Positions 2,554 through 34,800 of a DNA stretch of 64,000 bases are shown piece after piece. Where the stretch lies: NCBI RefSeq assembly GCF_964194155.1, contig NC_135887.1, positions 25,668,001-25,732,000 of the forward strand, in the 5' to 3' direction. The notes beneath the pieces were generated by a model. The model had not been told where the DNA came from and ran no database searches. It was given only the letters and a program-made list of their open reading frames with translations. The stretch comes from Cetorhinus maximus (taxonomy: Eukaryota). The translations under genes and the position numbers were made by a program. The stretch's first letter is position 1; each line of letters begins with the position of its first letter.

Positions 2554-5447
2554 GTACAGCACGGGGTTAAAAACAGAGTAAAGCTCCCTTTACACTGTCC
2601 CCATCAAACACTCCCAGGACAGGTACAGCATGGGATTAGATAGAGAGTAAAGCTCCCTCTACACCGTCCCCATCAAACACTTCCAGCGCAGGTACAGCAC
2701 AGGGTTAGATACAGAGTAAAGCTCCCTCTACACTGTCCCCATCAAACACTCCAAGGACAGGTACAGCACAGGGTTAGATACAGAGTAAAGCTCCCTTTAC
2801 ACTGTCCCCATCAAACACTCCAAGGACAGGTACAGCACAGGGTTAGATACAGAGTAAAGCTCCCTTTACACTGTCCCCATCAAACACTCCCAGGACAGGT
2901 ACAGCACAGGGTTAGATACAGAGTAAAGCTCCCTCTACACTGTCCCCATCAAACACTCCCAGGACAGGTACAGCACAGGTTTAGATACAGAGTAAAGCTC
3001 CCTCTACACTGTCCCCATCAAACACTCCCAGGACAGGTACAGCACAGGGTTAGATACAGAGTAAAGCTCCCTCCACACTCTCCCCATCAAACACTCCCAG
3101 GACAGGTACAGCACGGGGTTAGATACAGAGTAAAGCTCCCTCTACACTGTGCCCATCAAACACTCCCAGGACAGGTAAAGCACGGGCTTAGATACAGAGT
3201 AAAGCTCCCTCTACACCGTTCCCATCAAACACTCCCAGGACAGGTACAGCACGGGGTTAGACACAGAGTAAAGCTCCCTCCACACTCTCCCCATCAAACA
3301 CTCCCAGGACAGATACAGCATGGGGTTAGATACAGAGTAAAGCTCCCTCTACACTGTCCCCATCAAACACTCTCAGGACAGGTACAGCACGGGGTTAGAT
3401 ACAGAGTAAAGCTCCCTCTACACCGTTCCCATCAAACACTCCCAGGACAGGTACAGCATGGGGTTAGATACAGAGTAAAGCTCCCTCTACACTGTCCCCA
3501 TCAAACACTCCCAGGACAGGTACAGCACAGGGTTAGATACAGAGTAAAGCTCCCTCCACACTCTCCCCATCAAACACTCCCAGGACAGGTACAGCACGGG
3601 GTTAGATACAGAGTAAAGCTCCCTCTACACTGTCCCCATCAAACACTCCCAGGACAGGTACAGCACGGGGTTAGACACAGAGTAAAGCTCCCTCTACACT
3701 GTGCCCATCAAACACTCCCAGGACAGGTACAGCACGGGGTTAGACACAGATTAAAGCTCCCTCCACACTCTCCCCATCAAACACTCCAAGGACAGGTACA
3801 GCACGGGGTTAGATACAGAGTAAAGCTTCCTCTACACTGTGCCCATCAAACACTCCCAGGACAGGTACAGCACGGGGTTAGATACAGAGTAAAGCTCCCT
3901 CTACACCGTTCCCATCAAATACTCCCAGGACAGGTACAGCACGGGGTTAGATACAGAGTAAAGCTCCCTCTACACTGTCCCCATCAAACACTCCCAGGAC
4001 AGGTACAGCACGGGGTTAGATACAGAGTAAAGCTCCCTCTACACTGTCCCCATCAAACACTCCCAGGACAGGTACAGCACAGGGTTAGACACAGAGTAAA
4101 GCTCCCTCTACACTGTCTCCATCAAACACTCCCAGGACAGGTACAGCACGGGGTTAGACACAGATTAAAGCTCCCTCCACACTCTCCCCATCAAACACTC
4201 CCAGGACAGGTACAGCACGGGGTTAGATACAGAGTAAAGCTTCCTCTACACTGTGCCCATCAAACACTCCCAGGACAGGTACAGCACGGGGTTAGATACA
4301 GAGTAAAGCTCCCTCTACACCGTTCCCATCAAACACTCCCAGGACAGGTACAGCACGGGGTTAGATACAGAGTAAAGCTCCCTCTACACTGTCCCCATCA
4401 AACACTCCCAGGACAGGTACAGCACGGGGTTAGATACAGAGTAAAGCTCCCTCTACACTGTGCCCATCAAACACTCCCAGGACAGGTACAGCACGGGGTT
4501 AGACACAGAGTAAAGCTCCCTCTACACTGTCCCCATCAAACACTCCCAGGACAGGTACAGCACGGGGTTAGATACAGAGTAAAGCTTCCTCTACACTGTC
4601 CCCATCAAACACTCCAAGGACAGTTACAGCACGGGGTTAGATACAGAGTAAAGCTTCCTCTACACTGTCCCCATCAAACACTCCCAGGACAGGTACAGCA
4701 TGGGGTTAGATACAGAGTAAATCTCCCTCTACACTGTCCCCATCAAACACTCCCAGGACAGGTACAGCACGGGGTTAGATACAGAGTAAAGCTTCCTCTA
4801 CACTGTCCCCATCAAACACTCCCAGGACAGTTACAGCACGGGGTTAGATACAGAGTAAAGCTTCCTCTACACTGTCCCCATCAAACACTCCCAGGACAGG
4901 TACAGCATGGGGTTAGATACAGAGTAAAGCTCCCTCTACACTGTCCCCATCAAACACTCCCAGGACAGGTACAGCATGGGGTTAGATACAGAGTAAAGCT
5001 CCCTCTACACCGTTCCCATCAAACACTCCCAGGACAGGTACAGCACGGGGTTAGATACAGAGTAAAGCTCCCTCTACACTGTCCCCATCAAACACTCCCA
5101 GGACAGGTACAGCACGGGGTTAGATACAGAGTAAAGCTCCCTCTACACTGTGCCCATCAAACACTCCCAGGACAGGTACAGCACGGGGTTAGACACAGAG
5201 TAAAGCTCCCTCTACACTGTCCCCATCAAACACTCCCAGGACAGGTACAGCACGGGGTTAGATACAGAGTAAAGCTTCCTCTACACTGTCCCCATCAAAC
5301 ACTCCCAGGACAGTTACAGCACGGGGTTAGATACAGAGTAAAGCTTCCTCTACACTGTCCCCATCAAACACTCCCAGGACAGGTACAGCACGGGGTTAGA
5401 TACAGAGTAAAGCTCCCTCTACACTGTCCCCATCAAACACTCCCAGG
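2554..5447 (+). repeat. 69-bp tandem minisatellite, about 42 copies, in WDR81 intron 1
   Basis: Unit GTACAGCACGGGGTTAGATACAGAGTAAAGCTCCCTCTACACTGTCCCCATCAAACACTCCCAGGACAG; period checked at 2761 and 2830; no spacers. Confidence 0.97.
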
Positions 5448-19045: not shown

Positions 19046-19319
19046 ACGAGTGACCCCCTGGGTTCCCAGCCAGAACGGGATTCAATTCGTGTCACATTTG
19101 AAGAATCAACACCCAGAGCAGAGTCGAGGAGGATCTTTATAAACCGAGGGTAAAAAAGTGATTTTTATCTCTTTTCTCTCTCTCTATTTTCTTTTGTAGA
19201 AGTTCTTTCAAATTTCCCTTTTCATTTTTATTTTATTATTTAATGCACAGAATGTTTAAAGCAATGTATTTGAAATTTGAGTCCAGTTCATTCTTAACTG
19301 GTACAATTGGTCAGAATGT

Positions 19320-19706
19320 CTCTGGGCTGGGAATCTCTCCCTGGGGCAGGAATCTCTCTTTGGGCTGGGAATCTCTCCCTGGGGCGGGAATCTCTCCCTG
19401 GGACGGGAATCTCTCTCTGGGCTGGGAATCTCTCCCTGGGGCGGGAATCTCTCTCTGGGCTGGGAATCTCTCCCTGGGACAGGAATCTCTCTCTGGGCTG
19501 GGAATCTCTCCCTGGGACGGGAATCTCTCTCTGGGCTGGGAATCTCTCTCTGGGCTGGGAATCTCTCCCTGGGCTGGGAATCTCTCCCTGGGCTGGGAAT
19601 CTCTCTCTGGGACGGGAATCTCTCTCTGGGCTGGGAATCTCTCCCTGGGGTGGGAATCTCTCTCTGGGCTGGGAATCTCTCCCTGGGACGGGAATCTCTC
19701 CTTGGG
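19320..19706 (+). repeat. 19-20-bp minisatellite (CTGGGCTGGGAATCTCTCC/T)
   Basis: About 20 tandem copies of the GGGAATCTCTC core. Confidence 0.93.
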
Positions 19707-19707
19707 A

Positions 19708-19990
19708 TAAGAACATAAGAACATAAAAACTAGGAGCAGGAGTAGGAAATTCAGCCCCTCGACCCTGCCCTGCCATTCATTATGATCATGGCTGATCTCA
19801 TTTTGGCCTCAACTCCAATTTCCCGCCCTCTCCCCATAACCTTTCAACCCGTTACTCATTAAAATTCTGTCTATCTCCTCCTTAAATTTATTCAGTGTCC
19901 CGGCATCCACTGCACTCTGAGGTAGTGAATTCCACAGATTCATGACCCTTTGAGAAAAGTAATTCCTCCTCAGCTCTGATTTAAACCTAC
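19708..19990 (-). mobile_element. CR1 3' end fragment
   Basis: AAGAACATAAGAACATAA tail then GGAGCAGGAGTAGG...TTCAGCCC, and the RT 3' region in reverse. Confidence 0.75.
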
Positions 19991-21439: not shown

Positions 21440-22040
21440 GTGAGTGTGTGTGGAACCCGTACCCCAGTGAGAGTCAGTGTGTGTGGAACCCGTACCCCAG
21501 TGAGAGTCAGTGTGTGTGGAACTCGTACCCCAGTGAGAGTCAATGTGCGTGGGACCCATACCCCAGTGAGAGTCTGTGTGTGTGGGACCCGTACCCCAGT
21601 GAGAGTCAGTGTGTGTGAAATCCAAACTCCAGTGAGAGTCAGTGTGTGTGGAACCCGTACCCCAGTGAGAGTCTGTGTGTGTGGAACCCGTACCCCAGTG
21701 AGAGTCAGTGTGTGTGGGACCCGTACCCCAGTGAGAGTCAGTGTGTGTGGGACCCGTACCCCAGTGAGAGTCTGTGTGAGTGGGACCCGTACCCCAGTGA
21801 AAGTCAGTGTGTGTGAAATCCAAACTCCAGTGAGAGTCAGTGTGTGTGGAACCCGTACCCCAGTGAGAGTCTGTGTGTGTGGAACCCGTACCCCAGTGAG
21901 AGTCAGTGTGTGTGGGACCCGTACCCCAGTGAGAGTCAGTGTGTGTGGGACCCGTACCCCAGTGAGAGTCAGTGTGTGTGGGACCCGTACCCCAGTGAGA
22001 GTCAGTGTGTGTGAAATCCAAACCCCAGTAAGAGTCAGCG
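21440..22040 (+). repeat. 33-bp minisatellite (CCAGTGAGAGTCAGTGTGTGTGGAACCCGTACC) with a 198-bp higher-order period
   Basis: About 18 copies; variant unit GAAATCCAAAC recurs at about 21617, 21815 and 22013. Confidence 0.93.
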
Positions 22041-22818: not shown

Positions 22819-25800
22819 GTAGGCCTGATGAACGTGGCTCGAGAGGTGGGGCGTTTGGGGCAGAGGGAAGAGGGTGGAAGTGGGGGGAAGGTTGGAGCAG
22901 TGGAGGTGGGGGAGGGCAGTAGACATAGATTATATGAGCAGTCATTGAGGAGAGGAGCTCTTATTGCAATAATAGTGCCACACAAGACTTGATGTTCCTG
23001 CCACTAATCAGCCCCCATGGATCAGTCACTATATCTTTGCTGCACTCTCTCCCTGTCTTTCTTTCTCTCTCTCTCTCTCACTCTATCTCTCACTGACTCT
23101 CTCACTTTCTCATTGTCGCTCACTCTGTCTCTCTCACTATCTCTTTCTCACTCTGTCTCTGTATTCTTCTCGCTCTCTCTCACTCAGTCTCACTCTCTCT
23201 CCCTCACTCTCTCTCTCACTATCTCACTGTCTCACTCTGTCTCTCCCTGCCTCTCTGTCTATTTCTCACTCTCTCTTTCTCTCCCTCTGCCTCACTCCCA
23301 CTCTCTGTCTCTCACTCTCTCCCTCTCNNNNNNNNNNNNNNNNNNNNNNNNNNNNNNNNNNNNNNNNNNNNNNNNNNNNNNNNNNNNNNNNNNNNNNNNN
23401 NNNNNNNNNNNNNNNNNNNNNNNNNNNNNNNNNNNNNNNNNNNNNNNNNNNNNNNNNNNNNNNNNNNNNNNNNNNNNNNNNNNNNNNNNNNNNNNNNNNN
23501 NNNNNNNNNNNNNNNNCTCACTTTCTCTCTCTGTCTCCCTCTCTCTGCCTTGCTTTATCTCTCTCGCTGTATGTGTATCTCTCACTCTCGATCTCTGTCC
23601 CTCTCTCTCTTTCTCTCTCTCTCTCGTGGAATCGTCCCAGATTGGCACTAACGCAGTAGCAGGCAGAATAAAGAACAGTTTGCCAGCTGACCGCAATGGC
23701 GGCTTTTCACACCGTATCATCCCAATCCCGCCTCATTAATCATGCAATCCCTGGGAATACATTGTTTCCATGGTGGGCGGGCTCTCATTCACCCGCCACG
23801 TCATCACCTCCCCGCTTCATCACGCTGGGCGCCATCTTTAAAGTGCAGCCGTGCGCACACCTCTCAGTGCTTCCAGCCCAGGACTGCTGCACAGAAGACA
23901 AGAAGACTGCAGCCCCCCCAGTTTAATGACACGGCCCTCAAGCACCTTTGGATGCACTGGAGGCTGCCGTGATTTCCCCTACCCCTGCTCTGGCCACAGG
24001 AAGGGCAGCAACATCACCAATCCGGCATGGGAGGAGGTGACAGTGGTGGTCAGTGCCAATACCCTGCAAAAGAGGACAGCCACCCAGTGCCACAAGAGGA
24101 TGAATGATCTCCTCCGTTCCACCAGGGTAAGTCACTCTTCTCATCACTCACAACTCACACACTCACAAACCCATCACACGCCCACAGGGCCCTCACTCAC
24201 TGCCAGCTCAAGGGACATCACCATTCACTCTCTCACACTCACCGTCACTGTCCTCATCCCGTCCATGGGAACACTCACTACCCACATATACCAGGCATAC
24301 TTATCATCTGGCCTGGCAGGCATCCTGATACCCTCTTCCCATCTCTATTCATGCAGGATAAACTGGCTCACAACAAGAGGGAGAGGTCGCAGACTGGTGG
24401 AGGAATGTCTGAAATCAAGTTCCTCACGAACTTTGAAAACAGAGCCATCCAGCTGGCTGGTGATGACCGGGACCGGTCCTGTGCTGATGGTGAGGTTGGC
24501 GCTGCTCTACCAAGTGAGGATCCAGCAGTGCAACATCCATCAGACAACCTGTGAGTGATGTATCCTGTTCTGCAGTCCCCTGCCATGCACTAATTATCTC
24601 TCCTTGCTTTTGCAGGCATATCTGGGAAACAACTGAGGGGGTCCAGGGCCCAGGGCCTCGACTCAAGCTCTGAAGAAACCTCTGAAGAGGAATCTGAAGG
24701 CACCCTCCCTGAAACCCCGTCACAGCGCTCACCCACACCCCCCACCAGCGCAGACACACACCTCGGTGGGACCTAGCTTTAGAGTAGCCTCGGGATCACA
24801 ATCTGGTGAGCACATCGCACTTTCTGATCCACAGCAGGCGGAGGCAGGGATTTCCCAGGTCCCCGGCACTCGGAGGACTGCTGGAGGCCAGAACGTTGCT
24901 GAGTCCGAGTCGGATGATGAACCTCTGGACTCGGTCATGTCACAGTTGCTGGAGCTGCAAAGGCAAGCTCGGGAACATCAGGGAGGGATGTCCGCTGCCC
25001 TCAGGTTGCAAAGCACGATGGATGGAGCTGAGGTGATAGCACCGGCATTGCAACGCACTGAGGTCAACACTGGCAGGATGGCGGCCACCATGGAGACCTT
25101 GGTCCAGGACATCGCTCCTGCACTGCTGCACAGGCTTAACTCCATTGCCACAGTTGGCTTCCAACAGTGTGCATGCGAGAGGGGTGCTGAGTAGCTCAAA
25201 TTCACTCCAGCTTCCCTTTCTCCTCATGGAGTCAGCCAGGGGCCTTTGGGCACCCATAGGGAGGAGGATCAGCAGGTGCACACCCCGAGGACATCCACCC
25301 AGGTGACTCCAGGAGTGTCCAGCCCATCCAAATCCCCTCTTCCTGTGACACCAGCAGCTCCAGCTCCACAGGCTGAGGAGGGTGCCACTGCCACACAGCA
25401 GGACCCCGAAAGCAGGTCGGGGCCCTCCAGGTCTCGGCCCTCCAGAGGACGCCCGCCAAGGTCATCACAGACAGGGCGTCACAGTCAGCAGGCTGCCTCC
25501 ACCACCGCTGTGGATCTTGGGGGAGCACCAAGACGCAGTGGCAGGGTTAGGAAAGTTAAGAAGATGTATATTTAGTGACAGCCTTGGTGCCCTCGGTGAC
25601 GGCGTGTTTGGCCAGTTCCCCCGGCAACAGGAGGCGGACGGTGGTCTGGATCTCCCGGGAAGAGATGGTGTGCCGTTTGCTGTAGCTGATCAGGTGGGAA
25701 GCCTCGCAGGTGATGCACTCGAAGATGTCGTTGACGAACGAGTTGATGACACTCATGGCTGAAGAGGAAATGCCGGTGTCGGGGTGGACTTGCTTCAGCA

Positions 25801-28800
25801 CCTTGTAGATATAGATGCTGTAGCTCTCCTTCCTGCTTTTCTTGCGCTTCTTCTCACCTTTGCCGCGTTTCTTAGTGGCAGTTTTCTTTGGCCCCTTTTT
25901 GGGGGCCATGCCCTTAGCTGCCGCTTCAGGCATTGCGAATGAAAGTGGTGACTAAGAAGAGTTAGTTGCACAGCCTGAGCGCGGGTGTTAATCACTTGTA
26001 AATAATGTTCACTATTGTCAATAAACTCCCAAGAATGTCTCCCTGCCTATGGCTCTTTGTTCTGATTAGCAGTGTTTGTGTCACTCAGATGTAAAACCTT
26101 GGTTCCTGCACAAGATAAAGGCAGGTGTCTCAGTCCAGGGCCTCTTCCCTGTGCAGTGTGTGGTGTGGCGTCACACTCACTGGACACATTACTGATGCCT
26201 GCATCTCTAAGGTGCTGGTCATTGCTGCCAGAATGTAATTTCTCTCTCTCTCTCTCACCCTTTTTCTCCCTCTCTCACTCTGTATCTCTCTCACACACAC
26301 TGTCTCTCACTCTCTCTCTCACTCTCTCTCACATATGCTGTCTCTCACTCTCTCTCTCACACATGCTGTCTCTCACTCTCTCCCTCACACATGCTGTCTC
26401 TCACTCTCTCTCTCTCTGTTTCCCTCTCTCTGTCTCTCTCTCTTTATCTGTCTCTTTCTCTCCCTCTCTCTTTCACTCTTTCTCTTACTCTGTCTCTCCC
26501 TTTCTCACTCTTTCTCTCATTCTGTCTATCTTTCACTCTATCTTTCTCTCTTTCTGTCTTTAGGTATCCCTCTCTTACTCAGTCGCTCTCTCTCTCTCCC
26601 TCTCTCGCTCTGTCTTTCTCTTTGCCTCTCACTCTTTCATTTTTTTTATTCATTCCTGGGATGTGGGCTTCGCTGGCTGGGCCAGCATTTATTGCCCATC
26701 CCTAATTGCCCTTGAGAAGGTGGTGATGAGCTGCCTTCTTCAACCGCTGCAGTCCATGTGGTGTAGGTACACCCACAGCGCTGTTAGGGAGGGAGTTCCC
26801 TCTCTCACTCCGTCTTTCTCTCACACACTTTTCTGTGTCTCTGTCTCTCTCTTTCTCTATTTCTCCTCTCTCTCTGACACTCTTTCTCTCAGTCAGTCTC
26901 TCTCTCACACCTTATCTCTCTCTCTGTCTCTCTCTATCTCTCCCTCTCTCACCCTGTCTATCTTTCACTCTATCTCTCTCCCTCACTCTTTCTGTCTTTC
27001 AGTATCCCTCTCTCATTCTCTCCCTCTCTCTCTCTCTCACACTCTTTCTCTCACTCTCTCTCACACTCTATATCTTTGTATCTCTTTCACTGTGTGTCTC
27101 TCTCTCTGTTTCTCCCTGTATATCTCTGTCACTGTCATTCCCTCTCACTCTCTTCTCTCTCTGTCTCTCTCTTTCTCTGTCTCTCTCTCTCTCTCTTACA
27201 CACTATCTCTCACTCTTCTCTGTCTTTCTCTCTCTGTCTCGCTCACTCTCTCTGTCTCCCTTGCTCTGTCTCCCTCTCTCTCACTCACTCACTCATTCTC
27301 TCTCTGTCTCTCACACTCTCTACCTCTCTCTCTCTCTCTGTTTCTCTGTCTCCCCCTGTCTCACTCACTCATTCACTGTCTCTCTCTATGTCGCTCCCTC
27401 TGTTTCTCTCTCCCTNNNNNNNNNNNNNNNNNNNNNNNNNNNNNNNNNNNNNNNNNNNNNNNNNNNNNNNNNNNNNNNNNNNNNNNNNNNNNNNNNNNNN
27501 NNNNNNNNNNNNNNNNNNNNNNNNNNNNNNNNNNNNNNNNNNNNNNNNNNNTTCTTTGTCTCTCACTCTGTCTCTCTCTGTCACTCATTCACTCTGTCTC
27601 TCNNNNNNNNNNNNNNNNNNNNNNNNNNNNNNNNNNNNNNNNNNNNNNNNNNNNNNNNNNNNNNNNNNNNNNNNNNNNNNNNNNNNNNNNNNNNNNNNNN
27701 NNNNNNNNNNNNNNNNNNNNNNNNNNNNNNNNNNNNNNNNNNNNNNNNNNNNNNNNNNNNNNNNNNNNNNNNNNNNNNNNNNNNNNNNNNNNNNNNNNNN
27801 NNNNNNNNNNNNNNNNNNNNNNNNNNNNNNNNNNNNNNNNNNNNNNNNNNNNNNNNNNNNNNNNNNNNNNNNNNNNNNNNNNNNNNNNNNNNGTCCCAGA
27901 TTTGCACTAAGTGTGGTAATGGTGTTTTACCCGCTGGCCGTGATGGCGGCTGTTCACGCTGTTTCGTCCCAAACCCGCCGCATTAATTATGCATTCCCGG
28001 GATACACACCGTTTCCATGGCGGGCAGGCTCCAATTCCCCCGCCATGCCGTCACCTCGTTGCTTCATCACGCCAGGCGCCGTATTTAAAACACAGTCACG
28101 TTCAGTGCTCCCAGCCCAGGATCGCAGCAAAGAAATGGCCCCAAAAGACAAGAAGACTGCAGCCCTCGAGCACCTTTTGGATACCGTGGAGGCCAATGCG
28201 ATGTCCTCTACCCCCGCTCTGGCCACAGGAGGGGCAGCAACGTTATCACTCCAGCTTGGTAAGCAATAGTAGTGGGATCAGTGTCAATGCTGCACAGAAG
28301 AGGTTGTCCATCCAATGCAGATAGAGGATGAATGATCTCATCCGTGCAGCCAAGGTATGGCAACCATCACTCTAAACTCACACATTCACTGGCATCTCAC
28401 TCTCTGCCAGCTCAAGGGACATCACCACTCACTCTCTCACACACAGACCCTCACATGTCCATCTAGCCTCATCTCCTCTGGAGACTGCTTCCTCAGCCCT
28501 CACCATCTTGAGGCCACTTGCACAGATCAACATGTGCCCCACACACATCCTGGGATACCCTCCTTCCCCAGTACAGCCCTCACCCTGCAGCCTCTTCTCT
28601 TGCCTGAGGCCACTTCTCCCCCTTCCCCAAGGAAGCCCTAGCCCCACAGCCGTTGAAAAGCCCCCCCATGTGGCTGATCTGGTAGGTGTGTTGGGGCCGT
28701 GTGACATTGGCAAGACTGCCTTGTGCTGGAAAAATAGCTGAAAATTGATCCCGAAACTCCCCACATTGGCTTCTGGCCACAGATTTGCCAGTGGCCTTGT

Positions 28801-31800
28801 CAGTGTATAATGGAGGTGATGGGGGGTCTCATCCATTGGCTGCGGAGCTGGTGAATGCTCCCCATTGCTTCTTATTGGGAAGGCCGGCTGCAGTAGGTGC
28901 CAGGCATGGATCAAAGACTCCAGAGGCAGGAATCTTGCCCACCAAGAGCTGCTGGCCAATCAGATCCTGCCAGCTGTGCATTCCTCGGCTGTGCAGGGAG
29001 GTAGTGGTCCCCACTGACCACCTTCTGCCTCATTAAATGTTCCTCCCAGCACCAAATTCACCATGGGGAGAAGGGGGTCAGGGCATTATATTCCCCTTAG
29101 GACTCAGTCCAGAGGTGGGAACTCGTTGGTAATCCAGCCTGACACAGGGGTGTCATGTCCTCCCCCCGGAACCTTTGGTGGTGTGGGGCATTTAATCAGG
29201 TGGGAGGGTGACATGTAGGGACCGCACCGCCTTCCTGCCTCCATCCTGGTTAAATTCATGGCAGGATGGCACATGGATGCCCTTCTCTCCCTGCCACAAA
29301 TTGAAGCCCTTAAGTGGGCAATTAGTGCCTCAAACCATGGCAGCTGGTATTAAATACCACCCATTGTTTCCTAATGCTACCTCTCTCTTTCTCTTTCTGT
29401 AGCTCACTCTCTGTGCACCCCTCACCCTGGCTGGAAGTTTCCGATCCCATTGGCAGCGGGTGTCATGGTGGGTGTGAGCAGACAATATGGTGAGAAGACC
29501 ACAAATCGGCCTCACGCCACCATGAAACCAGTTTGTGACTGTCCGCTCCACCCTTCAATGGCGGAGCCATGTTTCCCACTGCCGCCTGTCGGGAACCTAA
29601 TTTCAATACTTTAACATCTCAGTATAAGACCTGCTCACCGGAATCATCCCCCCACCCCACTTGCTGGATCATCCCCCCCTCGCTGGATCATCCCCCCTCC
29701 ACACTGGATCACCCCCCCCTTTCGCTGGATCATCCCACCCCACTTGATGGATCATCCCCCCCCCATCACTGGATCATCCCCGCCCCCTCCCCCCATGCTG
29801 GATCATTCCCCCCCCACCCCCCCCTCACTGGATCATCCCACCCCCCCACCTCACTGGATCATTCCCCCCTCCCCCCCTCACTGGATCATCCCCCCCGCCC
29901 CCCTCCCTATGCTGGATCATCCCCCCATACCTTGCTGGATTATCCCCCCCCACCACGCTGGATCATCCCCCCCACCACGCTGGATCATCCCCCCCACCAC
30001 GCTGGATCATCCCCCCCCCCCCTCGCTGGATCATCCCCCCCCACCACGCTGGATCATCCCCCCCTACCACGCTGGATCATCCCCCCCACCACGCTGGATC
30101 ATCCCCCCCCCTCGCTGGATCATCCCCCCCACCACGCTGGATCATCCCCCCCCACCACGCTGGATCATCCCCCCCCACCACGCTGGATCATCCCCCCCCA
30201 CCACGCTGGATCATCCCCCCCCCCCTTGCTGGATCATCCCCCCCCACCACGCTGGATCATCCCCCCCCACCACGCTGGATCATCCCCCCCCACCACGCTG
30301 GATCATCCCCCCCCACCACGCTGGATCATCCCCCCCCACCACGCTGGATCATCCCCCCCCCCCCCCTCGCTGGATCATCCCCCCCCACCACGCTGGATCA
30401 TCCCCCCCCACCACGCTGGGTCATCCCCCCCCCTCGCTGGATCATCTCTCCCCCCCTCCCCCCTCCCCACCAATGCTGGATCATCCCCCCCCACACTGGA
30501 TCACCCCCCCCCCTCGCTGGATCATCCCACCCCCCTTGATGGATCATCTCCCCCCCATCACTGGATCATCCTCACCCCCTCCCCCCATGCTGGATCATCC
30601 CCACCCCCACCCCTCACTGGATCATCCCCCCCCCCCTCCCTCGCTGGATCATCCCCCCCCCCACGCTGGATCATCCCCACCCCCACCCCTCACTGGATCA
30701 TCCCCCCCCCCCCACGCTGGATCATCCCCTCCCCCCATGTTGGATCATCCCCTCCCCCACGCTGGATCATCCCCTCCCCCCATGTTGGATCATCCCCCCC
30801 CCCCCACGCTGGATCATCCCCTCCCCCCATGTTGGATCATCCCCTCCCCCACGCTGGATCATCCCCTCCCCCCATGTTGGATCATTCCCCCCCCCAGTGC
30901 TGGATCATCCCCCCCCCCCCCCACGCTGGATCATCCCCTCCCCCACCCCTCACTGGATCATCCCCCCCCCCCCCCCACGCTGGATCATTCCCCCCCCCAA
31001 TGCTGGATCATCCCCCGCCATGCTGGATCCCCCGGGCACACCGGAGTGATTGTTGACGTTTTTCACAACTGAACATAAATGACTATAGCACTCGGTGAGC
31101 TGCACTTCACTTGGGACCTTGAGGTTGATTTGCCAACCTTGCTTCGGGCAGCACTCGTGGTCATCAGTGCCAGGCTTCGCAGGCAGCAACACTTCACTTT
31201 TAGGGGGGCTCATGGGCAGGTCTGGACCTACCAGACCAGCCGTAAGGCGGGGGGGGCTTTTCAACGGCGGCAGGGCTAGGGCTTGTTCGGGGAAGGGGGA
31301 GATGTGGCCTCAGGCAAGGGAAGATGCTGCAGGGTGAGGGCTGTACTGGGGAAGGGGGATATCCCAGGGTTTGTGTGGGAACACATGTTGATCTGTGCAA
31401 GTGGCCTCAAGCAGGTGAGGGCTGAGGAGGCAGTCTCCAGAGGAGATGAGGCCAGATGGAGATGTGATGGTTTGTGTGAGAGAGTGAGTGGTGATATCCC
31501 TTGAGCTGGCAGTGAGTGAGATGCCAGTGAATATGTGATGGGCTTGTGAGTGTGTGAGTTTGGAGTGATGAGATGGTTGCCTTACGCTGGTGGCATGGAT
31601 GAGATGATTCACCCTTTATCTGCACTGGATGGTCGACCTCTTGCATGCAGCATTGGCACTGACCACCTCTGCCACTGCCTCCCAAGCCGGAGTGGTGAGG
31701 CTGATGGGCTTCCTGTGGCCAGAGCAGAGGTAGAGGACATCGCGGTGAGCCTTGACGGTGTCCAGAATGCATTCCAGGGATGCATCACTGAATTGGGGGG

Positions 31801-34800
31801 GCTGCACTCTTCTTGGCTTTTTGGGCCATGTCTTCACTGGAGTGGTCCTGAGCTGCAAGCATTGAGAAGTGTGCACACGGCTGCAGTTTAAATATGGCGA
31901 CCAGAGTGAGGAAGCGGCAAGGTAATGGCATGGCGGGCAAATCAGAGGCGTGTCTCCTATGGCTGCATAATTAATGAGGCGGGAATGGAACGTTATGTTG
32001 TGAAAACCTCCTGCTGCTACCGGACTTTGTGCACATCTGGACAATTCCGCCTCTCTCTCTCTCTCTCACACTCTTTCTCTCCCTCTCTCTCCGTTCCTCT
32101 CTCTCTCTCAATTTCTGTGATCTGCTCTTTATCTCTCTCACTCTCTCACCCCCTCTCATTCTCTTTCTATAATTCTATCTCCCCCTCTCTCTCATCATCT
32201 CTCTCACTCAGTTTCTCTCACTCCCTCCCTCCACTCTTGCTCTATCTTTCACTCTCTCCCACTCTCTTACTCTCTGTGATCCCCCTCTCTCACGCCTTCT
32301 CCCCTCTTATTCTTTCTCTCAACTCTCTGTTTCTCACTCAATCTCATTCTCTCACTCCTTCTCTGATTCTTTCTCTCGTTCCCCGCTCACTCTCTCTCTA
32401 ATCCCCCCTCTCTCTTATGCTCTCTCTCCCCCTTCTCACTCTCTCTCTCATAATTTCTCTCCCCAACTCTTTCTAACTCTCTCTCTCTAACTCTCTCTCT
32501 CTCTCGTGCTATCTCTGCATCTCCTCACTCTCTATCTCTCATTCTTCCTCTTCCCCCACTCTCTCTCTAACTCTCTTTCTCTCAGTCTCACTCTCTCACC
32601 CCACTGGGTGCTGATGCTGGTGTCTCTTGTGTTTTGCAGTTGGAGTTACAACCAATTCCCCCAACACCAGACTCCACCTTTTGGTGATCTCAGCTCCGCT
32701 GATACTGACAGTGGCTGCAGTTTGTCTCATCGTGTGGTTCAAGAAGTGAGTGACCCAACAGGAGCCTCCGTTCAGGGATAGAGGAGACAGGTTCCCTACA
32801 CAAGATGCTCAGCTCTTCTCTGAAACACCTAATCACTGCACCATTATCCCCTGCAACTCTAAACACCTCACGCATCAGACGTGGGCAACGCTGGCAGGGT
32901 CAACATTTATTGCCCATTCCCTAGATGCCCTGGTTTGGGGCTCACTAAACAGGTTAATGGGTGGGGCACACAGGCTGGTGTGATGTGTCGGTGATTTAAC
33001 CACTTATGTTTGGAGATCGAGAATGATGAATGATACAGTCTCACACTAAATCCAACCTTTATTGAGAATTTTGAACAAAGCCATTTCAATTAAATCATAC
33101 AGTTACTCCTCAGGTGGTCAATCCGAGATGACTGTAGGTCATTTAGGAGTGATCTTTGACCGAGATCTTCCTGCTTGGCTCACCGACACTCTTCCCTTCA
33201 ACATAGACTTCCTCATTGAGAGCTTCTGTGTGGGACCTTTTCAGGGGTTTACATACAGAATGCAGTTTGTAAAGAATTCATGCACAATCCCCCTCTGGAT
33301 GAGGATTGGTTAATTGGGTGCATGATCGGCTGTTGGTTGGTTAGTATATTCCCAAGTTGTCTTCCATAGGCATAACCATATAAGGACTTTTACCTGTCCT
33401 CTCTGATTAACTCTCTGGTTTCGATCAGTTTGCTATGATTAACTATCTGGTTTTGATCAGTTTGCTGTGCTTACCTGTTGCATTTCAATGTAAATTGTCC
33501 TAATCAATTCAATATCATTGCAATTAACAAGTATGGATGCAATTAGCAAGTATCGCACCAATCCGGTTTCCACATTACAAACACTGCTCTAAACTGATGG
33601 CCAATCAATTACATCTTTCATTACAGATGGGCAGACGGGGCTGGTAGGATGGGCAGATGGGTTGCTGTGTGGCTGATGCAGTTTCAAATCTTTTATTCCC
33701 TGTGTTCCATGTTCTAGAACAAAGCAAAAATGCAGAAAACCTTGGGGGAATCAAATAAAACTGGGAAACAACATTCCAGAGGCAAGGAACAGAGTGTCAT
33801 TGGTGAAGGTTCTCCCTTCACCTCGACATTTGTCATCAACGCATCGAAGCACCAGTGAATTACGTTCATCACACACAGCAGCAGGAACACAAAGTTTACA
33901 GGTACAAGTGTGTACACAACCACCATATATCTGTATATACACAACCAGGGTATATCTGTGTATACACAACTGGGGTATCTCTGTGTATACACAACTGGGG
34001 TATATTAGTGAATACACAACTGGGGTATCTCTATGTATACACAACTGGGGTATATCAGTGTATGCACAACCGCCGTATATCTGTATATACACAACTGGGG
34101 TATATCTGTCTATACACAACTGGGGTAACTCTGTGTATACACAACTGGGGTATATCAGTGTATACACAACCGCTGTATATCTGTATATACACAACCGGGG
34201 TATATCTGTGTATACACAACTGGGGTATCTCTGTGTATACACCACTGGGGTATATCAGTGTATACACAACCGGGGTATATCTTATGTTAGGGTTCATTAC
34301 ACAGGGATAGGAGTAAAAGAATAAATAAGTCTTGTTGTAATCACACCTGGAATACTGAGTACAGTTTTGATCCCCTTATCTAAGGAAGGATATACTTGCC
34401 ATAGAGGCAAAGCAACAAAGGTTCACTAGACTGATGTCTGGGAGAGAGCGATGCCCCATGAGGAAAGATTATGTAGAATGGGCCGATAGTCCCTGGAGCT
34501 TATACGAGTGAGAGAGGTAGCATTTGAGCATCTCAAATTCATCAGAACACAACATTCCAGAGACAAGGGACAGAGTGTCACTGGTGAAGGGTGGATACTG
34601 AGAGGTTGTTTCCCCTAGCTGGGGAATCTAGAATACAGAGGCACAGTTGCAGGGCAAGGTGTCAGTCATCGAGGGCTGAGGTGAAGAGAAATAGCTTTAT
34701 TCAAAGAACTGTGAATCTTTGGAATTTTCTATCCCAGAGAGAGCTGTGGATGCTCAAGACTGAGATCGATAGATTGTTGGACTCAAAGGGAAGCGGGGGT

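Follow-up and report, generated by a model that had tools for sequence, protein, structure and literature searches.

The stretch analysed here, 64 kb of the Cetorhinus maximus genome (NC_135887.1, positions 25,668,001 to 25,732,000; the window), contains a truncated PIF/Harbinger-type DNA transposon and, antisense at the stop codon of its Myb/SANT gene, a copy of the mRNA of a histone H2B variant. The copy itself is ordinary. The interest of the locus lies in a target-specific family of Tx1-clade long interspersed nuclear elements (LINEs), whose insertion site at this stop codon also collects cellular RNAs. The features of the locus are collected in Table 1.

Table 1. Features of the H2B insertion and its host element, in window coordinates
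Feature	Position	Strand	Basis and details
Truncated Harbinger (PIF/Harbinger-type) element	23626..26237	+	BLASTN; left end and Myb/SANT gene retained, transposase arm and right terminus deleted
Broken Myb/SANT gene	23842..25575	+	Translations compared with L096-L098; frameshift near 24760, in-frame TAG at 25192-25194
H2B-variant open reading frame (ORF), 125 aa	25556..25933	-	ATG at 25933, stop at 25558-25556; Pfam Histone, E 2.7e-20
5′ leader of the H2B mRNA, 19 nt	25934..25952	-	Comparison with sequence upstream of the parent gene
Microhomology TAC (3 nt) between H2B mRNA (..AAAUAUAC) and target	25566..25568	-	Parent compared with window junction
Left copy of the 12-bp target-site duplication, TAAGAAGATGTA	25557..25568	+	Its 3′ end would have served as the primer
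Right copy of the duplication, TAAGAAGAGTTA	25953..25964	+	8 exact bases plus 2 of 4

Structure and origin of the H2B copy

The copy has the features of a tailless retropseudogene: it has a source gene, locus L004 (96.9% identity over 386 nt), it is truncated at its 3′ end, it has no poly(A), and it is flanked by a duplication. An earlier note on this DNA had described about 19 nt of 5′ untranslated region (UTR) plus the H2B coding sequence, lacking both poly(A) and a stem-loop; the sequence and Rfam confirmed this description, the histone stem-loop being found at the parent and not at the window locus. The exact 8-bp direct repeat that the note reported, TAAGAAGA, lies at 25557-25564 and 25953-25960 and occurs nowhere else on the + strand of the window. 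As a measure of the duplication, however, 8 bp is too short, since the repeat is an exact part of a 12-mer that recurs at this site, and the full unit is that 12-mer with 2 mismatches. The copied sequence ends in ..AAATATAC, 10 nt upstream of the parent's stop, and the parental C-terminus TKYTSCK* has become TKYTSS*. The terminal Lys codon is therefore absent, as claimed, but the Cys codon has gone with it. Both Ser codons and the stop are derived from the target, to which the note had already attributed the stop. Its proposal of microhomology priming is also supported, although the complementarity between the target and the last 2-18 nt of the RNA that characterises tailless copies here consists of the 3 nt TAC and not of the TCT TCT repeat. 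The 20-nt convergent overlap with the Myb frame is real, with the host frame stopping at 25573-25575. Finally, the target is present in empty Harbinger copies, the comparison that had been proposed for the duplication, and together with the stem-loop parent this upholds the reading as a tailless retrocopy of a non-polyadenylated histone mRNA.

The host element is a remnant. In BLASTN against two fuller copies (L097 and L098), only window positions 23626-25568 and 25953-26237 aligned, and tblastn with the transposase of the family (Pfam DDE_Tnp_4) gave no match in the 64-kb window. The Myb/SANT gene scored weakly, below the curated cut-off, with Pfam Myb_DNA-bind_4 (E 0.0034), and the native protein end KVKKM* of empty copies reads KVKKMYI* in the window. 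Two more decayed Myb-Harbinger fragments, one per strand, lie near the element (27893-28685 and 31002-32006), and three minisatellite arrays occupy 19280-19730, 21440-22030 and 29640-31050.

L004 was the sole gene with a stem-loop found in searches of the animal's own genome (best 40 of 4,410 candidates with the window locus as query, 40 of 1,151 with the parent region). Its neighbours are an H3 gene, a gene that we take to be H1-like, and a second H2B. The L004 protein has 92-94% identity with its matches in Heptranchias, Carcharodon and Pristiophorus and ~80% with canonical H2B, and a ray protein carries its diagnostic residues; given these shark identities and the shared residues, we regard L004 as an elasmobranch (shark/ray) H2B variant. 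A divergent Arg/Gly-rich ORF of 222 aa in the same small cluster (L095, ~3012-3680) is presumably H1-like. At least 13 young dispersed copies of the variant (95-98% alike, window included) and at least 3 older ones were found. In the other 12 young copies the 3′ boundary falls within the 3′ UTR or where the stem-loop begins, and most of them are flanked by a recognisable duplication specific to the copy; only the window copy ends within the coding sequence. At coding positions 30, 33, 39 and 111, L004 differs synonymously from all young retrocopies covering them, so either the parent has silently changed since or another source copy exists. Two variant copies, L008 and L017, lie in Harbinger elements at other positions (in the Myb domain and ~400 bp past the site).

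A targeted site and the LINE that uses it

Empty Harbinger copies read ..GTTAAGAAGATGTAG, in which TAG is the Myb stop; the insertion point lies between ..GTTAAGAAGATGTA and GTTGC, ~1.9 kb into the element. Among copies fetched by their left flank, 7 of 29 were filled at this point, and the commonest filler was the 3′ end of a LINE, in antisense. A long terminal repeat retrotransposon, considered for its TGTAAC start, was rejected, the insert being this LINE 3′ end. The anchor of the target is exact in at least ~1,600 copies; 1,547 sites have the exact 25 bases followed by purine-pyrimidine, and 21 of the 100 listed bear the tail of a Tx1 element or of a short interspersed nuclear element (SINE). 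Inserts at the site share their position, orientation, duplication geometry and short matches between RNA and target, such as TAA at L090 (judged against L085). Where both insert ends were visible, the duplication was often 11-12 bp from TAAGAAGA (L041, L103, L104, L107, L109, L123, L131, L145, L149, L151, L164, L166, L175 and L183), and this 11-12-mer is duplicated around Tx1, SINE, U6 and other inserts. Duplications of 0-3 bp or small deletions were seen at L013, L040, L044 and L223-L227. Across the loci examined, some of them counted twice, junction matches were antisense in 26 cases and sense in none.

With the LINE alone as query, 30 loci were returned (best 40 of 3,671 candidates scored); apart from the query locus itself, 19 of 29 terminate at the site, 1 terminates within a different LINE copy, at the 12-mer that this copy shares with the site, and 9 terminate elsewhere. 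When young copies with a mostly intact ORF2 were chosen regardless of their flank, 11 of 19 reached the site within 2 kb, 1 was off target, and 7 had no assigned end, most of them running into more stacked units. Both proportions exceed the 20% of copies flanked by one type of target that PMC4494074 uses to recognise target preference. Many members of the family have full-length ORF2 frames. That of L199 encodes 1,296 aa with the domains Exo_endo_phos and RVT_1 (endonuclease and reverse transcriptase) and, along its entire length, shares 50% identity with Xenopus Tx1 ORF2 (YTX2_XENLA), its best named full-length match, compared to 33-38% for full-length fish proteins. Pfam recognised no family in 7 of 8 pieces of decayed LINE fragments, the domains being found in the intact copy. 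Judged by its sequence, the LINE is a young Tx1-clade family with a target preference. Intact 1,303-codon Tx1 ORF2 frames also form arrays, for example at G000:C21:34827637-34871105, in which they lie ~7.1-7.7 kb apart and have equal scores, which suggests recent activity. At L199 (7915-8537), L206, L211 and L216 we observed stacks of a ~125-bp SINE ending in GAAAGAGT, like the Tx1 3′ end, with the units separated by remnants of the 12-bp duplication.

The same position has also received cellular RNAs. At least 8 H2B retrocopies occupy it (the window copy, the L010/L219 stack, L013 and L223-L227), and they derive from several parent types. Two pattern searches for anchor-exact sites with other next letters gave 17 and 42 matches, of which 37 were mutated empty sites, 10 held Tx1 or Tx1 plus SINE and 12 held other inserts: 3 H2B copies (window included), a spliced mRNA, U6, 5S, a Harbinger-transposase-like RNA, a SINE, 2 Penelope-like pieces and 2 unassigned pieces. 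These counts are lower bounds, the 1,547 purine-pyrimidine sites lying outside the screen for non-Tx1 cargo. U6 and 5S were identified by Rfam, which gave no match for the inserts at L136 (124 bp) and L175 (316 bp, with a 12-bp duplication); the Penelope-like and other SINE names are our presumption. The spliced mRNA, at L139 (G000:C12:32294063-32297091, insert 1526-2550), has an intact 314-aa frame with a 3CxxC zinc finger, and we take it to be ZAR1-like; a ZAR1-like cargo would point to oocytes. This insert appears spliced upstream and its end resembles an intron (GTAAGT), suggesting that a partly spliced RNA was copied. The 901-bp insert at L142, which is the same locus as L044 (G000:C16:25620805-25623833), contains a Harbinger-transposase-like stretch, YRNQKGFHSLNFQL, and is transposon RNA copied into another transposon copy. 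A pattern for H2B gave 5 matches at the site and one for H3 gave 0, the latter pattern being degenerate and without a positive control, so the apparent excess of H2B over H3 is a weak hint. Of the other young copies of the L004 variant, 1 of 12 lies in the site: L010, stacked with U6 and SINE on a Tx1 element. Chance would produce such a 1 in 12 with a probability of ~3e-5 to 6e-4, estimated from per-insertion probabilities with 1,650-30,000 targets assumed. A further young copy, L016, is fused to the Tx1-partner SINE.

Proposed route of insertion and alternative explanations

From these comparisons of sequence we consider it probable that the window insert, a tailless retrocopy of the H2B variant at a Tx1 target, arose once and is decaying, and that the Tx1 machinery likely put it there. 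The steps follow from established target-primed reverse transcription. The Tx1 apurinic/apyrimidinic-type (APE) endonuclease would nick the + strand after TGTA, and the freed 3′ end would pair with 2-4 bases (UA, UAC or UACA) of whichever RNA is bound. Reverse transcription would start at the paired bases, with no poly(A) tail required, and a second nick 12 bp leftward would give rise to the duplication. In the window, the primer would have paired with UAC in the last codons, leaving the copy cut 10 nt before the stop, and TCT TCT TAA would have been acquired from the target by accident. A primer end set by the target implies that the RNA is cut wherever a match is offered, which would explain why the window copy alone ends in the coding sequence.

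Several observations weigh against this account. The microhomology of 3 nt is short enough to be chance. The two copies of the duplication are mismatched at 2 adjacent bases (TGTA vs GTTA), and a flank tree addressing the original allele gave a divided signal, 4 of 6 informative right-flank columns leaning towards GTTA and the only informative left-flank column towards TGTA; a GAGTTA-type allele is also found in the empty copies L056 and L030. The tree of host copies has the shape of a star, and just 6 of its 55 branches are marked as well supported. Moreover, 11 of 13 young variant copies are off target, with unrelated duplications, so most copies of the H2B variant are not targeted. Penelope-like and other SINE sequences also occupy the site, and a nick made by Tx1 may therefore serve other reverse transcriptases. 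It could accordingly be proposed that the Tx1 endonuclease only nicks or breaks the site and that another reverse transcriptase (of CR1, L2 or Penelope type) or break repair copies the H2B RNA. The unrelated repeats that occupy the position, in part bearing the 12-bp duplication (L164 and L175), the inserts with 0-3 bp duplications or small deletions, and the majority of variant copies lying off target are all compatible with such a division of labour. Against it, the H2B copy of L010 is stacked directly on Tx1, that of L016 is fused to the partner SINE of Tx1, and the orientation and 12-bp geometry in the window match those of Tx1's own insertions. We consider this alternative unlikely.

The earlier note had also suggested that a DNA transposon moves H2B beside its own Myb protein. 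In its favour, H2B is present in one and the same position and orientation in eight Harbinger copies, and two of them (L224 and L227) share a parent type, a 3′ junction and a near-identical 5′ end. Nevertheless, several parent types gave rise to these inserts (74-89% alike apart from the two variant copies), the insert ends differ, and the host flanks are scattered on the tree, with 8 label changes among 58 rows. Even in the most similar pair, L224/L227, the flanks are 79% alike, which is the median, and the inserts 89%. In the genome-wide junction search the right junction of the window occurred once at ≤1 mismatch, and the searches that covered the left junction gave no further copy of it. 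Thus, neither the shared junctions nor the two intact termini of a gene-capturing Harbinger were observed: the window junctions are unique, an outcome that the note itself had named as refuting its suggestion, the host is a dead fragment without right arm and transposase, and its Myb frame is broken, which leaves transposon-borne H2B unsupported. That a Harbinger element captured H2B and spread it next to its own Myb protein is hardly credible. Nearly as improbable is a retrogene, functional now or in the past, whose expression comes from transposon sequence. The note was right that the ORF is still open: ATG and frame are intact and the target supplied a stop. This openness is no sign of function, since the aligned coding sequence of 12 of 12 sister young retrocopies is also free of stops and indels, and it is better read as a sign of youth; a frame that has taken 7 neutral substitutions still lacks a stop with a probability of 0.75. 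The window copy differs from the parent by 6 synonymous and 5 non-synonymous changes (R73C, A75T, R80H, R83S and S113T). Four of the 6 synonymous differences are common to all copies and the fifth site is split among copies, leaving ~2 synonymous against 5 non-synonymous private changes on 87:291 sites, which are small numbers and do not display the purifying selection expected of a functional H2B retrogene. Four of the 5 amino-acid changes fall on near-invariant residues (R73, A75, R80 and S113, kept in 118, 120, 117 and 120 of 120 H2B matches). The copy has neither stem-loop nor poly(A), and the parent's upstream boxes, presumably CCAAT, octamer and TATA-like, lie outside the copied segment. 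We infer that the window copy is probably a decaying pseudogene without a promoter of its own. Contigs assembled from 4 sequencing runs and compared with the left junction were dominated by repeats, and no listed piece spanned it.

Significance and relation to known systems

Outside mammals, the LINE responsible for mRNA retrocopies is usually unclear. A fixed target changes this situation, as whatever sits at the site very likely arrived through the Tx1 nick. With at least ~1,600 anchor-exact targets, a single aligned position can inform on priming rules, on RNA preference and on expression in the germline, and the abundance of intact ORF2 copies opens the mechanism to laboratory tests. A caution also follows, in that open H2B frames scattered in shark assemblies can be young pseudogenes. 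A broader proposal, which we put forward tentatively and hold somewhat short of an even chance, is that a still-active shark Tx1 has a narrowly defined DNA target, the Harbinger Myb stop codon, but hardly discriminates among RNAs, for which 2-4 pairing bases would suffice and poly(A) would be dispensable, and that its site records germline or oocyte RNA (H2B, ZAR1-like, U6, 5S) with an excess of H2B over H3. If so, thousands of Harbinger copies would form a one-position recorder of germline or oocyte RNA, and an intact Tx1 ORF2 would amount to a natural tool for writing arbitrary RNA into a specific site.

The comparisons below refer to the available parts of the cited sources. The targeting of DNA transposons by Tx1 elements is published, and so, separately, are tailless histone copies; we did not find the two combined at one site. 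Our literature search, which did not extend to Repbase, most subscription journals and supplements, found no report of a target at the Harbinger Myb stop or of histone or other mRNA copies gathered at a Tx1 target. A survey of vertebrate retrocopies (bioRxiv 10.64898/2026.06.26.734816) counts 14,081 retrocopies in cartilaginous fishes and proposes that CR1 or Tx1 LINEs sustain retrocopies in non-mammals; its main text, as available, does not mention histone, shark or Harbinger. The evidence of the survey is a correlation with LINE content, whereas the shark site links mRNA copies to Tx1 locus by locus.

In human, 51 histone-derived cases of tailless retropseudogenes are described (Noll et al. 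2015, PMC5322556). The shark copies resemble that class in lacking oligo(A), in their 3′ truncation, in target bases that can pair with the final 2-18 nt of the RNA and in their duplications. Mammalian tailless copies, however, are attributed to L1 and dispersed at TT/WAAAAWW (PMC5322556), whereas the shark copies gather at one transposon position tied to Tx1. The target in the window is not the therian L1 motif but the Harbinger 12-mer shared with Tx1; the window copy works like the tailless class and is not a product of therian L1.

Among LINEs, the closest parallels are the crocodilian Tx1-Mar and Tx1-9_AMi, which prefer Mariner or Harbinger elements (Kojima 2015, PMC4494074). The shark family shares with them a site in a DNA transposon, antisense insertion, tandem stacking and a partner SINE; mobilisation of SINEU by crocodilian Tx1 was likewise inferred from shared targets (PMC4494074). 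It differs from Tx1-Mar and Tx1-9_AMi in its target, judged by description: that of Tx1-9_AMi lies ~300 bp from the Harbinger 5′ end (PMC4494074), whereas the shark target is the Myb stop ~1.9 kb in. Crocodilian Tx1-Mar copies are 85-87% identical to their consensus (PMC4494074), compared to a shark family with many full-length ORF2, and the cargo described for the crocodilian target consists of small nuclear RNA-derived SINEs (PMC4494074) and not, as in the shark, of copies of protein-coding mRNAs. Xenopus Tx1L, with an ORF2 50% identical to that of the shark LINE over its full length, also inserts into a DNA transposon (Tx1D), its target being a non-autonomous piggyBac element (PMC4494074) where that of the shark is Harbinger.

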